A stretch of DNA of 64,000 bases from Acidobacteriota bacterium (GCA_015493585.1 WGCW01000016.1:30668-94667); one strand, 5' to 3'. Counted from the stretch's first letter, positions 11,605-45,385 are shown. Program-made: numbers and translations. The notes: a model not told the origin generated them from the letters alone.

Positions 11605-12339
11605 CTAGTGCACCCATCCCGCCCACACGGAGACGGGAATGGAGATGTTGCCGATAGCAATGGCGTACGCGAAGATGATGGCAAAGATGCGCCGCCAGTG
11701 ATTGAACCTCGGGTGGCTCCAACCCAGGGTCTGGAAGAGACTCCACAACCCATGGTAGAGGTGGAATCCAAGCAGCAGGTTCGCGACGATATAGATGATG
11801 GCGATCCCAGGATGCTGGAATCCGCTGACCACGTTACGGTACACATCGATCTGCCCGTTCGCCGTGTAGTGGAGCTGGTAGACGGAACCAAGGGTCAGAT
11901 GCATCAGGTGGAAGATGATGAAGAGCAGGATAATCGGTCCGCTCCAGACCATCGTCCGGGCCGCATAATCAACCGCAGGATCCTTCTTGATCTTGTAGTT
12001 GACCGGGCCGCGCGCACCGTAGCTCTGGTACCAGACCTGCACCGCTGCGACAATGTGCACGAGCACACATGCCAGGAGAATGATCCGCACCGGCCAGAGA
12101 ATTTCCGGCACACTGTGCAGGAAGTGCCCGTAGCGGTTCAGCGCTTCCGGCCCGATGTAGATCTGCAGGTTACCGATCATGTGGACGAAGACGAACAGGA
12201 ACATAATGATTCCTGTAACCGCCATCCACATCTTCTTGCCGATGGACGAGCCGTAAAACCCAAGACTTGTGTCCATAGCCCTTCGAAGACCTCCCCCCGA
12301 ATAATTCCGACCTGCCATTATGGACCGGCCAGTGCGCAT
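11605..12339 (-). CDS. sdhC: Succinate dehydrogenase cytochrome b subunit (single-subunit b558 type)
   Basis: Five hydrophobic helices with conserved His residues (..FVFVHMIGNLQIY.., ..CVLVHIVAA.., ..FHLYHGLWS..), directly upstream of sdhA. The start is uncertain; ATG at 12339, 12318 or 12276 are all possible. Confidence 0.75.
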   Translation of the reverse strand: MRTGRSIMAGRNYSGGGLRRAMDTSLGFYGSSIGKKMWMAVTGIIMFLFVFVHMIGNLQIYIGPEALNRYGHFLHSVPEILWPVRIILLACVLVHIVAAVQVWYQSYGARGPVNYKIKKDPAVDYAARTMVWSGPIILLFIIFHLMHLTLGSVYQLHYTANGQIDVYRNVVSGFQHPGIAIIYIVANLLLGFHLYHGLWSLFQTLGWSHPRFNHWRRIFAIIFAYAIAIGNISIPVSVWAGWVH

Positions 12340-12453
12340 ATCGTATTCCTTTGAGAAAATTTTCTCAAGCGCTCATCTCCCCCCTCGTGATGAGCGCCGC
12401 AGGCTGCAACCGTCAGCGCCGCCTCCCACATCTCCCGAGCACGCGTGATCCGA

Positions 12454-12672
12454 GGTTGTTGCGCTACGCCCGGTCGCCCGGAAGCAGCCTTGCAGCGCGG
12501 ACTTGAATCCGCATCTTCTTGTACTACAACGCGTCGAGCGTACGATGCGGACTGAAGTCTGCGCTCCCGCCGGCGCTCTCCCCGCGATCGATCGCCTTGG
12601 CGTTGGGATGAGTATGCTTCGATCGCGGTCGTATCCACTGGAATCAGCCGGGTTCCGCACAGCGCAACAGCC
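12454..12672. repeat. Structured intergenic repeat, copy A (terminal inverted repeats; related to 42579..42764)
   Basis: Aligns along its whole length with 42579..42764, apart from a roughly 31-33 nt insertion. The ends GGTTGTTGCGCT... and ...AGCGCAACAGCC are reverse complements. Internal hairpins include GCGGAC-TGAA-GTCTGC. Confidence 0.6.
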
Positions 12673-12716
12673 GCCATCCCAACCCCCCTTTCCCCCTCCC
12701 ATGCTACTGTGAACCC

Positions 12717-13394
12717 GTGCTGATCGCCGAGACGTACGTCAGCCTTCAGGGCGAGGGGATCCTGGCTGGGACCCCATCGTTCTTGATCCGCACGTCGGGA
12801 TGCAACCTCCGGTGCCGGTGGTGCGATACGCCATATGCATCCTGGTTCCCGATGGGCCGGCGCAGGCGCGTCCCGGAGCTCGTCGAGGAAGCCCGCCAGG
12901 CGGGACCGCATCACGTCGTCCTGACCGGGGGAGAGCCACTGCTCCAACGTGAGGCTGGCGAGCTGACACGCGCACTCCGGAGCGCAGGTTTCCACCTGAC
13001 CGTCGAGACATCGGGGACCGTCTCCCCGGAATTTGAGTGTGATCTCCTCTCGGTCTCGCCGAAGACCTCTTCCTCCGATCCGGAGGGACCATGGCGGGAG
13101 CGGCACCGTGCCACACGACAGAACGTGGCGCCGCTGATCGATCTCCTTGCCAGGTTCCCTGCATTTCAGCTCAAGTTTGTTATCGACAGCGAACGCGATC
13201 TCCCCGAAATCGTACATTTGCTCCATCGCCTCGGCGACCCGGACCCGGGGCGTGTGCTCCTGATGCCGCAGGGGCGAACCCCGCAGGAGGCCGCGCGCCG
13301 GGCGCCGATGGTGGCGGCCTTGTGTCTCGAGCACGGCTTTCGGTACACTCCACGCCTCCAGCTGGATCTCTTCGGCGGAGGAAGAGGAGTGTGA
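12717..13394 (+). CDS. queE: 7-carboxy-7-deazaguanine synthase (radical SAM)
   Basis: 225 aa, GTG start. N-terminus ...ETYVSLQGEGILAGTPSFLIRTSGCNLRCRWCDTPYASW carries the QueE CX3CX2C-type cluster motif. Confidence 0.85.
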   Translation: MLIAETYVSLQGEGILAGTPSFLIRTSGCNLRCRWCDTPYASWFPMGRRRRVPELVEEARQAGPHHVVLTGGEPLLQREAGELTRALRSAGFHLTVETSGTVSPEFECDLLSVSPKTSSSDPEGPWRERHRATRQNVAPLIDLLARFPAFQLKFVIDSERDLPEIVHLLHRLGDPDPGRVLLMPQGRTPQEAARRAPMVAALCLEHGFRYTPRLQLDLFGGGRGV

Positions 13395-29354: not shown

Positions 29355-29845
29355 GTGCTCAGAATGACCTCCTCCCCCTGTCATCCTGAGCCGCTCTACC
29401 CTCCCGCTGTCATCCTGAGCCGCTCTACCCTCCCGCTGTCATCCTGAGCCGAAGGCGAAGGAGCTGGGCGGGGGGCCCAAAAGGCTTCGGGGTATGAACG
29501 GCGGCCACATGAGTAGGGGACGGTGTTGAGCTTATCTCAGTCTTCCTCTGCGAACCTCTGCAACCTCCGCGGTTGCCTTTTCTTCGCGGTCGTCCCCCCG
29601 CCCAGATTCTTCGTCGGCTTCGCCTCCTCAGAATGACAGTGGGGGGGAAGGCATCGCCTCCTCAGAATGACAGTGGGGGGGAAGGCATTGCCTCCTCGGA
29701 ATGATAGGGGAAGGAAAGGCTTCGCCTCCGGCACACAAGTCAGGATGACAGGGGAGGGCTGACCGCACCTCCGCCTCGTTGCGCCTCTGCGTTTCATTCC
29801 TCTTCCCACCGGTCTCCGAAAGAAGCGGCGCTCGGCGCAACAACC
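29355..29845. repeat. Mosaic intergenic repeat cluster 1 (tandem plus inverted GTCATCCTGAG-type units)
   Basis: Two perfect 29-bp tandem units at 29378-29435 plus a diverged third. Two 34-bp tandem units of opposite polarity at 29621-29688 plus degenerate copies. 29438-29845 is colinear with 44842-45362. Confidence 0.75.
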
Positions 29846-29851
29846 TGGGTG

Positions 29852-42526: not shown

Positions 42527-42578
42527 GACGTCACCCTAGCAGACTCCCGGGCAAGGGCGCTGGTCCAGCTCAGTTGGA

Positions 42579-42764
42579 GGTTGTTGTGCTGTGCGGCGTC
42601 GGCCGGAGACAGCCTTGGAGCGCGGACGAGCGTCCGATGCGGACTGAAGTCCGCGCTCCCTCGGGGGCTCTCCCCGCGACCGGTCGCCTTGGCGTGGGCG
42701 CGAGCGAGCTTCGATCGTGGCCGTATCCACTGGAATCACGCGGGCTCCGCACAGCGCAACAACC
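42579..42764. repeat. Structured intergenic repeat, copy B (related to 12454..12672)
   Basis: An 18-bp terminal inverted repeat (GGTTGTTGTGCTGTGCGG / CCGCACAGCGCAACAACC, one G-T position) encloses hairpins CGGAC-GAGC-GTCCG and GCGGAC-TGAA-GTCCGC. Its 3' end abuts the stop codon of the 42765..44393 gene. Confidence 0.6.
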
Positions 42765-44393
42765 TCACTTGGGATGAGGCAGAGGGATCACTGTGCCGCC
42801 CCAGATGTCGGTCGCCGCCTCGCTCACGACGACGGCGAGGTTTTTCGCCTTGACCGGCCACCGGAGCAGGCAGCTGCCGACCCAGTCTCCCTGGCTGTCG
42901 ACGAGGCGCAGCGGCTGCGGCTTCCACTGGGTCATAAACGGCGTCAACGCCCCGAAATCGGCGGCGATCGTCAACCGGATCTTCGGCGCTCCCGTTTCGT
43001 GGAACAGCTCGAGGAACCGGGACATGTTCGTCCTGACCACCAGCCGTCCACGGTATCCCTTCCTCTTGCTGCCGGACAGCCCGGTCAGTTGGGCGGTGAC
43101 ATGAAGGTCGCCGTTCACCCGCCGGTGGTCGAGCAGACTCAACGCCCAGTTGCGGTCGATGCCGGCCTTCGTAACGCTACGGACAAGCCGTGGTGCGTAG
43201 ATGACGATCCCGTGCCGCCGCGGCGTGATCTCGACGTGGTGCAGTTTGCCGTCGGGCGGCCGCGTGACCGTGTAGGTGAGCTCGTACGCTTTAACATACG
43301 TGTGCAGCGTCTTGGTCAATGCCTTCGGCGAGGCGGCGACAGAACCACCCGAGACGCCCGCCGTAATGCGCAGCGGTTCGTTCGGGTGGAGCAGCATCGT
43401 GCCCTGGTTGGGCGTCATCCCCACTGCATACGGGCTTTCGGCCGTCTCGAAGCGGGTATTCCCCGAGACATCGGCCGTCGAAGTCGTGTCGGTCTGAGCG
43501 ACGCCGCCGGTAAACGAGACCACCGTCCACCCCATCCCGGCCAGCTCCTGGCTGACCTGCTCGAAAAGGGCAGCAACGGAAGTCTCGTTGACCACATCGT
43601 GCTCCGGCAAAGTCTTGCGGCCCGGCAGCGCGCCCCCGCTGGCCCACTGCACGTAGGTCGAGTAGTACTCCCACGGGTTGAGATCGAACCCGCCGGAAAT
43701 GACCAGCAGGATCCGGTCCTGGAGCCGGGGCTGGGAGACGGCCCAGATCTGCATCCGTTCGATCTCCCGGCGGATCACGGCCTCCTCCTGCCGGTAGTTC
43801 ATGGCGGCTAAACGGCTCGTCAAGCCCATGGAGCCGTTGAGATCGCGGTTGAACTGCCTCCGTAACCTCGAAATCTTTTGATGTGGAGGGTACTTCCGGG
43901 GCAGCACACCGAGAATGCGCATCAGAGCTCCTGGAGCCGTCACGCCATCTGCCACGACGCGCGGCGCCGGATCGGCCACGACGATGCGGACAGGCCCGAG
44001 CGCCGTTAGTTGAGCCGCGTCTTTTATAAGTCCCTTGATCGCCGAGCGCATCCGGCCACGGTCGAGGAGCTCGTTCTGAAAGTAGAGCGTGACGGCCGGG
44101 GCGCGCGTCCTGCCTGCAGCATGGGCCGTGAGAAACGGGACAACCGTCACGCGCCCGACCGGCTTGCCGTCTTCGAGCACGCGGATGTCCTTTGGCGTCA
44201 GGTCGCTGACCGGGTTGCCGTGCGCATCGACCGCCCGGACGAGCATCCGGATCGACGTGACGGACAACGATCCCGAGAACGTACCCCTCGTCTGCGGCCT
44301 GCCAGCCAGCGCCGGCCCTGCCAGAAGGACACACCCAACGAAAAGGCACACCAAAAGGAAGCGCCACGAGCTCGGTCTTTGTGAGGCTGCCAT
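42765..44393 (-). CDS. Secreted VWFA-related 'acidobacterial domain' protein
   Basis: Signal/TM segment ...WRFLLVCLFVGCVLLAGPALA, then ...VRAVDAHGNPVSDLTPKDIRVLEDGKPVGRVTVVPF..., the pattern I associate with the VWFA-related acidobacterial domain. A strong purine-rich RBS precedes the ATG at 44393; the tracked ORF starts at 44477. Confidence 0.55.
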   Translation of the reverse strand: MAASQRPSSWRFLLVCLFVGCVLLAGPALAGRPQTRGTFSGSLSVTSIRMLVRAVDAHGNPVSDLTPKDIRVLEDGKPVGRVTVVPFLTAHAAGRTRAPAVTLYFQNELLDRGRMRSAIKGLIKDAAQLTALGPVRIVVADPAPRVVADGVTAPGALMRILGVLPRKYPPHQKISRLRRQFNRDLNGSMGLTSRLAAMNYRQEEAVIRREIERMQIWAVSQPRLQDRILLVISGGFDLNPWEYYSTYVQWASGGALPGRKTLPEHDVVNETSVAALFEQVSQELAGMGWTVVSFTGGVAQTDTTSTADVSGNTRFETAESPYAVGMTPNQGTMLLHPNEPLRITAGVSGGSVAASPKALTKTLHTYVKAYELTYTVTRPPDGKLHHVEITPRRHGIVIYAPRLVRSVTKAGIDRNWALSLLDHRRVNGDLHVTAQLTGLSGSKRKGYRGRLVVRTNMSRFLELFHETGAPKIRLTIAADFGALTPFMTQWKPQPLRLVDSQGDWVGSCLLRWPVKAKNLAVVVSEAATDIWGGTVIPLPHPK

Positions 44394-44520
44394 CTCTTCT
44401 CCTCCTCTCCTCCCTCCGCCTGGTCCCCCCCGACACAACATTTCTGATACCACCCATCGCTTCCCGCACATCCGCATCGCTACTCCCAGTATACGCTTGA
44501 CGGGGAAAAAGTTCTGGCGT

Positions 44521-45385
44521 TGTCATCCAGGAGGTTGCTGCGCTGCTCTGCTCTCTGCGAACCTTTGCGCCCTCTGCGGTTGCGTTCTCCAGATGGATCT
44601 TCAGGAGGTGGGGACAGTGTTGAATATGCCCGCCGCCCAGATCCTTCGAGGCTCGCCTCCGGCACGCCGCTCAGGACGACAAGTGAGGAGCGTCTGCGGC
44701 TCCTCTCGACGACGAACAAGAGTTGCCTAGCACCAGAGAGGCCTGAGAAGGGGACAGTGTTGAATAATCCCGAACGCCGCCGAATGTCATCCTGGGCCGC
44801 CAGACCCCCGCCGCTGTCATCCTGAGCCATGCCCCTTCCCTTGTCATCCTGAGCCGAAGGCGAAGGATCTGGGCGGGGGGCCCAAAAGGCTTCGTGGTGG
44901 GAACGGCGACCACATGAGTAAGGGACAGTGTTGATCTTATCTAGGCCTTCCTCTGCGACCCTCTGCGTTCTCTGCGGTTGGGTTCTCCCGATGGCTCATG
45001 GCGAGCTGGGGACGGTGTTGAATAACTGCTACAGACGTGGAAACAGAAACGCCCTCTTCCCCCCGTCCAGGAGGTTTCTCGCGGGGAACGCCGGGGGCGC
45101 AGAGGAAATCCCGGTGCGTGAGCGATCGTGGCAGCCTTCGGGGAGCTAGCCGGGTGGAAGGCGTCATACTTGCCCGCCTCCCGGCCAGATCCTTCGCGGT
45201 GCGCCTTTGGCGCACCACTCAGGATGACAAGGGAAGGAAAGCGTTCGCCTCCTCAGGATTGCAAGGGAGGGATGGCTGTGGCTCCACCCCCTGATGCTTC
45301 TGCGTTTCGTTCCTCTTCCCACCGGTCTCGCAAAGAAGCGGCGCACAGCGCAGCAACCTCTCCAGATGGCTCCTCCGTCCGCATC
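44521..45385. repeat. Mosaic intergenic repeat cluster 2 (nested copies of the same modules as cluster 1)
   Basis: Four GGGACRGTGTTGA sites (44611, 44751, 44922, 45009). There are three forward and three reverse GTCATCCTGAG-type arms and three CTCTGCG..CTGCGGTTG modules. The terminal 60 bp are near-identical to 29787-29845. Confidence 0.75.

Follow-up and report, generated by a model that had tools for sequence, protein, structure and literature searches.

Bacterial MITEs are non-coding elements of 70-300 bp with terminal inverted repeats (TIRs) of 15-30 bp, which reside beside genes and have a robust secondary structure (PMC3733652). The direct repeats at their sides wane with age (PMC10969869). 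In Coxiella burnetii, QMITE2 elements carry 7-9 bp direct repeats and 23-29 bp TIRs around a core of 113-145 bp, for which a ΔG of -113.09 has been given (PMC10969869). MITEAba12 is 113 bp long and 78% AT; its identity to the IS is confined to the TIRs, 9-bp TSDs are associated with MITEAba12 and ISAba12-like ends, and duplications have been retained in 40% of the copies (PMC6382973). A REPIN is a doublet of REPs that folds into a hairpin (PMC3116915). The two REP superfamilies described in the literature are defined by a GTAG or a CGTC tag (PMC3733652).

Two copies of the repeat analysed here, A and B, were found in a stretch of 64,000 nucleotides of Acidobacteriota DNA, which is called the window throughout. 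They are probably old, diverged copies of a non-autonomous DNA transposon of ~219 bp, a MITE, hosted by an uncultured Acidobacteriota species. Like QMITE2, the Correia/NEMIS elements of Neisseria, ERIC and RUP (PMC10969869, PMC3733652), the element is small and non-coding, has TIRs and decaying flanking repeats, occupies intergenic positions near gene starts, and is predicted to form a highly stable stem-loop as a transcript or as ssDNA. It differs from bacterial MITEs in being GC-rich (63-70%, the window being 63%) rather than AT-rich, which counts against the assignment, and in the length of its TIRs, which at 12-18 bp lie towards the lower limit of the range. It has no sequence similarity to the named MITEs, no parent IS was found in the sequence examined, and its core is a REPIN-like doublet.

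Copies A and B and their relatives

The two copies in the window are the following.

12454..12672, plus strand: copy A, 219 nt, located in the spacer that separates the divergent genes sdhC (minus strand) and queE (plus strand)
42579..42764, plus strand: copy B, 186 nt, with an internal 33-nt deletion

Copies A (12454-12672, 219 nt) and B (42579-42764, 186 nt) align over their full length, as claimed in an earlier note on this DNA, and differ by 30 substitutions and one 33-nt gap, with an identity of 83.9% over 186 columns; copy A is 91.5% identical to the family consensus. The hairpin GCGGAC-TGAA-GTCYGC, which the same note had assigned to both copies, was indeed found in A and B. The gap must be interpreted in the opposite direction. 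What had been described as an insertion of 31-33 nt in A is a 33-nt segment present in A, in the L076, L096, P0121 and P0124 copies described below, and begins also in the truncated L100 copy. Being found in all copies except B, the segment is ancestral, and B carries a deletion.

The spacer hosting copy A is 377 nt long, and separates a Sdh_cyt gene (11605-12339, minus strand) from queE (12717 onward, plus strand), a divergently oriented radical-SAM gene with a GTG start at 12717, next to which lies a PTPS/queD gene. The distance between the 3' end of copy A and the queE GTG, previously given as about 45 nt, is 44 nt. The neighbours of copy B, both encoded on the minus strand, are a 570-aa ORF, whose stop codon marks one side, and trpF, whose start marks the other; trpF is the first gene of trpF-trpB-trpA, and the plus strand of the repeat is antisense to both adjacent genes. 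The 570-aa ORF (42765-44477, minus strand) has no Pfam hit, and is called as a 542-aa protein in ENA and NCBI. The best relatives of TrpF are named 'Acidobacteria bacterium' or Thermoanaerobaculales, and the population is one of uncultured Acidobacteriota. The sequence of the window is also found in ENA ERZ23495730 scaffold_98, in NCBI GCA_027039845.1 and in a Logan assembly. The spacer of copy A is identical at 376 of 377 positions across the ENA, NCBI and Logan assemblies, and an identical copy B resides in L071, a contig of a MAG of the same species.

Three reading frames are open through both copies. The substitutions distinguishing A from B are evenly spread over codon positions (9/10/11; 16 transitions vs 14 transversions), so that none of the three frames is coding and the hypothesis of a coding region was ruled out. 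No gene has been placed in A or B by gene callers.

Additional copies were sought by protein searches with the translations of spurious ORFs present on the element. The plus-strand frame retrieved from NCBI P0121, which is 67% identical over the whole translated element, is distinct from every other copy, and represents the sixth distinct copy. Minus-strand frame 0 retrieved P0124, which led to copy G, in addition to two irrelevant repetitive proteins; the query with minus-strand frame 1 found no match. Copy G (L096:8277-8491) resides on another contig of the same-species MAG GCA_027039845.1, flanked by a NOV_C-domain gene and by an RHH antitoxin/ParE pair. Copy H (L100:14100-14152) is located past the right end of the window, 100 nt upstream of a HEAT/T2SSE gene; it matches the consensus at 52 of 53 positions, and ends with the contig. 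Copies A, B and H are found within about 82 kb of contiguous sequence. A metagenome scan with ATGCGGACTGAAGTCYGCGCTCCC identified copy F (L076:628-846, JGI metagenome), which adjoins an ArsR-family gene and has GGGTGTTGCGCTGTG...CACAGCGCAACACCC as termini.

The family consequently includes at least six distinct copies, distributed over several contigs and a second metagenome. Their neighbours (sdhC/queE, trpF, the ArsR-family gene, the RHH antitoxin/NOV_C gene, the HEAT/T2SSE gene) are mutually unrelated. Single copies are 87-94% identical to the consensus, vs 77-84% to each other, and a star-like divergence of this sort would be expected from a burst of copying followed by independent decay. 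The finding of just two copies within the 64-kb window could suggest a one-off local duplication or a chance resemblance with no family behind it, akin to the chance duplication mentioned in the earlier note. This is ruled out by the additional copies; the enrichment of the terminal motif and the flank statistics reported in the next section are likewise far from chance, and the probability left to such a reading is next to nil.

All four assemblies of the population carry copy A, which is fixed in them, and a search through SdhC revealed no empty site, a point against a MITE. Upstream of trpF, the element is absent in the closest relatives, in which TrpF is 76%, 73% and 70% identical, and the contigs of these relatives contain no trace of it. 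Gene order upstream of trpF differs as well in these microorganisms, and the absence of the element is therefore no proof of an empty site. A scan of species-representative genomes with the 17-nt block CGTATCCACTGGAATCA, which is altered in copy P0121, gave 65 matches, approximately the number expected by chance, and none was homologous beyond the seed.

In all 5 copies with known context, the left end of the element is the one that lies 50-115 nt away from a gene start, a number of cases too small for significance. Copy G is located 75 nt upstream of the RHH-antitoxin/ParE-toxin pair (L096:8567-9029).

Termini and flanking direct repeats

The termini are reverse complementary over 12 bp in copy A and 18 bp in copy B, just as the earlier note had stated, and the family consensus of the TIRs is GGTTGTTGCGCTGTGCGG. 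The 13-nt terminal motif GGTTGYTGYGCTG occurs 7 times in the window, vs 0.36 expected. Inward-facing pairs of this motif are found at 12454/12672, 42579/42764 and 44533/45358, in addition to one solo end at 29833-29845. Both ends of copy G (L096) carry a perfect 13-mer, and copy F (L076) has a 15-bp end pair. Two features of the window share the ends of copies A and B.

44533..45358, no strand assigned: element C, 826 bp, with the ends GGTTGCTGCGCTG ... CAGCGCAGCAACC
29833..29845, minus strand: solo terminal motif, GGTTGTTGCGCCG on the minus strand, closing a repeat cluster

The interior of element C is not the A/B core, but a mosaic of other repeat modules. The same end variant is found on both sides (GGTTGCTG...CAGCAACC), which indicates that the two ends belong together. 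The repeat cluster closed by the solo end and the right ~580 bp of element C are collinear; a left terminus matching the motif at 29833-29845 was searched for, and none was found. Both termini were also scanned against viral contigs, and gave chance matches only.

The regions 29371-29846 and 44533-45359 are two collinear mosaic clusters of repeats. They feature tandem 29-nt units (CCTCCCGCTGTCATCCTGAGCCGCTCTAC), a long inverted pair formed by TGTCATCCTGAGCCGAAGGCGAAGGA.CTGGGCGGGG and its complement (29396-29475 vs 29594-29684; 44834-44881 vs 45176-45237), and CTCTGCGAACC..CTGCGGTTGC modules. The clusters look like a second, nested family of inverted-repeat elements. The module GGGGACAGTGTTGAATA is repeated at 44605-44632, 44745-44772 and 45003-45030, as well as at about 29515 and 44920. 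Its GTTGAATAA part resembles the ends of IS903-type elements. Two copies of the module (44610, 44750) fit the motif GGGGWSAS, reported in the TIRs which flank TIRYT tyrosine transposase genes, a class including an Acidobacteria-specific clade (PMC3733652).

Three independent assemblies of the population stop at or next to the repeats. NCBI JALUMN010000283.1 stops inside element C (at about 44855 in the window), ENA scaffold_98 about 120 nt past it (at about 45480), and ENA scaffold_2343 inside copy H (L100:14152). Breaks in or beside repeats are consistent with the presence of multi-copy repeats in the genome, and the element accounts for the interruption of the assemblies of this population at these loci.

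Short direct repeats are found immediately outside the TIRs of A and B.

12445..12453, no strand assigned: left direct repeat of copy A, GTGATCCGA, 6/9 identical to the right flank
12673..12681, no strand assigned: right direct repeat of copy A, GCCATCCCA
42570..42578, no strand assigned: left direct repeat of copy B, TCAGTTGGA, 7/9 identical to the right flank
42765..42773, no strand assigned: right direct repeat of copy B, TCACTTGGG, holding the stop and the last codons of the 570-aa ORF

The stop region of the 570-aa ORF is duplicated imperfectly at the far side of copy B. The stop codon itself falls inside the right direct repeat, directly abutting the element. The flanks of element C (CATCCAGGA / TCTCCAGAT) are 5/9 identical, and have the core TCCAG in common. 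Those of copy F are similarly 5/9 identical; those of copy G match at 2/9 positions, and represent no duplication. Taken together, the flanks of A, B and C are identical at 18 of 27 positions, vs 7.5 ± 2.4 for random positions at the same spacing (P=4e-5), and the figure is 25 of 45, vs 12.5 ± 3.1 (P=1e-4), when F and G are added. The signal peaks only at k=9, other lengths giving chance values, and the flanks match as direct, not as inverted, repeats. The search for target-site duplications advised in the earlier note has thus revealed imperfect 9-bp direct repeats. The register of the flanks can also be read as a 5-bp duplication, with GA/TC counted within the ends of the element (17/25 identities, P=4.5e-5). 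A duplication of fixed length, around elements which have common ends but different content, is a signature of transposition.

Measuring 186-219 nt, within the range of about 50-600 bp of MITEs, A and B are devoid of coding capacity, share TIRs, are flanked by 9-bp repeats and belong to a set of dispersed copies. The lack of a flanking duplication in copy G (2/9), and the imperfection of the duplications in the other four elements (5-7/9), count against a MITE. On the whole, the repeat family is real, and is probably a new family of MITEs with a REPIN-like doublet core.

In the process envisaged for the MITE, a transposase encoded elsewhere in the genome would bind the two ends of the element, excise or copy it, and insert it into a target cut with a 9-bp stagger. 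Once repaired, the target would bear 9-bp direct repeats, which would decay later. The same ends may also mobilise other cargo, as the 826-bp element C. The transposase would most likely be of the DDE type, and an IS5-family, ISAba12/IS903-like enzyme is the best candidate lead, because the IS ends GGCTTTGTTGC[A/G]CAAA resemble the ends of the element and 9-bp duplications are found in both cases. MITEAba12 and its ISAba12-like parents belong to the IS903 group of the IS5 family. MITEAba12 and ISAba12-like elements have in common with the repeat the 9-bp duplication, and ends starting with GG..TTGTTGC; the IRL of ISNov2 is GGCTTTGTTGCGCAAAT, the corresponding end here GGTTGTTGCGCTGTG. The similarity of GGCTTTGTTGC[A/G]CAAA to GGTTGTTGCGCTG, the end found here, requires a 2-nt gap, is lost after position 13, and was noticed post hoc, and may serve as a lead only to the transposase family. 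No ISAba12-like transposase was found in the sequence examined. The window and the loci L001, L071 and L096-L103 contained no autonomous element, no transposase and no pair of TIRs separated by about 1 kb, which counts against a MITE. The ends GGTTGTTGCGCTG, along with the 9-bp duplication, provide a handle to find the enzyme responsible.

The hairpin core and possible movement as a single strand

Each copy is non-coding and consists almost entirely of nested palindromes, namely a terminal stem, a long doublet hairpin and two small hairpins. Both A and B fold better than dinucleotide shuffles, on the plus (z = -4.3, -5.2) as on the minus strand (z = -3.7, -5.8), and the predicted ΔG of the RNA folds ranges from -102 to -108 kcal/mol. 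On either strand, the consensus fold includes a 16-bp terminal stem, a long imperfect palindrome (columns 20-135) and the small hairpins at columns 136-178 and 187-203. In the middle of the long palindrome, a 24-nt unit, itself a hairpin (GGAGCGCGGACTTSAGTCCGCATC), is present as an inverted doublet with a variable spacer of about 28 nt, and columns 39-62 pair with columns 91-114.

12492..12515, plus strand: arm 1 of the doublet in copy A, ..AGCGCGGACTTGAATCCGCATC, with the hairpin at 12497-12512
12544..12567, plus strand: arm 2 of the doublet in copy A, GATGCGGACTGAAGTCTGCGCTCC, near-identical to the 24-mer ATGCGGACTGAAGTCCGCGCTCCC
L074:1340-1391, L075:13908-13971, L079:159-197, L081:5108-5151: examples of the 24-mer module in JGI contigs (L072-L083)

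The 24-mer ATGCGGACTGAAGTCCGCGCTCCC, which forms the hairpin GCGGAC-NNNN-GTCCGC, is found exact in 11 metagenome contigs otherwise unrelated to the element, where the module is arranged as a single unit, in tandem or as an inverted doublet. Neither a GTAG nor a CGTC tag lies beside the stem, in the module of the element and in the flanks across 12 contigs. No paper with the sequence of the 24-mer was found, and literature searches for the hairpin and the terminal sequence gave nothing relevant. The 24-mer is a widespread REP-like module lacking a GTAG or CGTC tag, and may merit a study of its own.

The organization of the core resembles that of REPINs, in which two inverted palindromic units and a poorly conserved spacer form a long hairpin, stems are steadier than loops, and some changes are compensatory (PMC3116915). 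As in REPINs, the short unit is found alone or in doublets in many genomes, here in 11 unrelated contigs. A RAYT/TIRYT enzyme, which is a tyrosine (HUH) transposase, might accordingly have moved the palindromic unit in the form of single-stranded DNA, the element being REPIN-like or a 'TIR repeat'. Hairpins would then be recognition structures, and the similarity of the flanks would denote a target preference rather than a duplication. A distinct clade of TIRYT transposases, with associated families of TIR repeats, has been described in Acidobacteria, and the modules found nearby at 44610 and 44750 fit the TIR motif GGGGWSAS (PMC3733652). Yet, outer TIRs and a 9-bp flanking duplication are absent in REPINs, and the 9-bp register of the direct repeats is significant here. 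Mobilisation of the IS200/IS605 or RAYT type is not known to make target-site duplications. Neither tag of the two published superfamilies, GTAG or CGTC, is present in the short module (PMC3733652). REPs are mostly found downstream of genes (PMC3733652), whereas the 5 copies with a known context are all 50-115 nt upstream of a gene start. No RAYT or other tyrosine transposase gene is found near any of the copies in the gene tables of the fetched loci. Transfer as a single strand, the main rival of the MITE, is accordingly unlikely, and the element is better regarded as a MITE in which a doublet of this type makes up the core.

The stems of the element are nonetheless steadier than its loops, as 38 of 138 paired columns are variable, vs 38 of 81 unpaired columns. 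Since paired columns vary less, the palindromic shape is under some constraint, as is the case for published MITEs and REPINs. Within the initial 13 bp of the terminal stem, every change found among five elements keeps pairing: double changes occur at position 3 in copy F (L076) and at position 6 in element C, and two G·U pairs are formed on the plus strand. Steady stems and changes which keep pairing are not required by a plain DDE model, and count against it. Base pairing itself could be under selection, either because the element moves or acts as a folded single strand, or because some copies have been exapted as RNA modules of 5' regions, though we rate this as improbable. In the former case, for example, an outer TIR element with a REPIN-like core may be recognised by a tyrosine transposase.

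The RNA alternative and the adjacent genes

The earlier note wavered between a small mobile element and a structured RNA. According to the second view, A and B would belong to a family of structured ncRNA genes, or represent a cis-regulatory leader, as that of queE; several paralogues would exist, and the plus strand would be the one read. The strong folds predicted for the plus strand (z = -4.3 and -5.2), and the location of copy A 44 nt upstream of queE, fit this view. The minus strand, however, folds equally well. In the alignment of four sequences, the share of paired cells is 93.9%, vs 91.8% in shuffles (2/500 reach this value), and pairs changed on both sides are 6, vs 3.0 expected (8/500); the structure was derived from the same four sequences, and in trials of the tool such values occur in 5-25% of unstructured related alignments. 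The covariation signal in favour of an RNA is consequently weak and comes from four sequences, and RNAalifold assigns a covariation penalty to either strand.

G·U pairs outnumber A·C pairs by 25 to 6 in the plus-strand structure, an excess biased by the prediction of the structure on that same strand. The assignment of a strand by G·U vs A·C counts was dropped for this reason. Helices found on both strands include 8 G·U, 4 A·C and 5 other mismatches, and thus have no clear strand preference. The two differences formerly reported in the first 12 bp of the terminal stem, U-G vs U-A and C-G vs U-G, were confirmed. The notion that pairing is kept on the plus strand only rests on these two positions, and does not hold when more of the stem and more copies are considered. 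Positions 13 and 14 of the stem of copy A read A·C and C·A on the plus strand; on the minus strand, these would be G·U.

The search against Rfam proposed in the earlier note, which had mentioned the Acido-1 and Acido-Lenti-1 motifs, matched no family. At the gathering score, Rfam 15 gave 0 matches across the entire window, and likewise for L076, L096 and L100, and at E<=10 only noise was found around A and B (E>=0.47; miRNA and lncRNA models). The implied link to queE is not shared by the other copies, which adjoin trpF, ArsR-family, RHH antitoxin and HEAT/T2SSE genes, unrelated to each other, and copy B does not point towards any plus-strand gene. Considered as a riboswitch or a leader, either preQ1-type for queE, or a trp leader or T-box for trpF, the repeat has no consistent position, orientation or conservation. 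Relatives whose TrpF is 70-76% identical lack the repeat upstream of the trpF gene, and none of the exact matches to the 17-nt block in species-representative genomes falls within a homologous element. No promoter or terminator is found at the boundaries of the element. Scans detected a promoter-like site for sdhC outside of it, and a weak terminator-like hairpin in copy A only, which is not conserved. Flanking direct repeats, and common termini around unrelated cargo, would not be expected of an RNA gene. An RNA gene or leader is therefore unlikely, and the first of the two initial views is the one favoured, being supported by shared termini, 9-bp repeats, dispersed copies, star-like divergence and the breaks of assemblies at the repeats. 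Integron attC sites and CRISPR were also considered, and dropped on inspection of the sequence, as there are no R''/R' core sites and no regular array.

The repeat is unlikely to have a regulatory-RNA role for queE, and is best explained as a mobile element of a well-known kind. A false lead is thereby removed, since neither a queE riboswitch nor a new regulatory RNA is indicated. What emerges is a probable, undescribed family of MITEs, GC-rich and highly structured, in a poorly studied lineage of uncultured Acidobacteriota. In annotation, hairpin-rich intergenic blocks of about 200 bp, along with adjacent mosaic clusters, can be flagged as mobile repeats. Stable hairpins near promoters might alter the expression of sdhC, queE or trpF. 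Any such effect of the MITE would be a by-product of its insertion near a promoter or in a UTR, where its RNA would form a very stable hairpin of about -100 kcal/mol, rather than the work of a designed regulator.

In copy A, ATCTTCTTGT follows the first hairpin arm (12497-12522), and the region is flagged as terminator-like on the plus strand. At the same site copy G has ATCTTTTTGT, copy F lacks a T-run, and copy B has lost the region. Read-through in the direction of queE could be attenuated by the hairpin in some copies. Between copy A and the start of sdhC, TTGAGA-17-TACGAT (12340-12368, minus strand) matches a sigma-70-like promoter; a genuine promoter at this site would place copy A outside the sdhC transcript.
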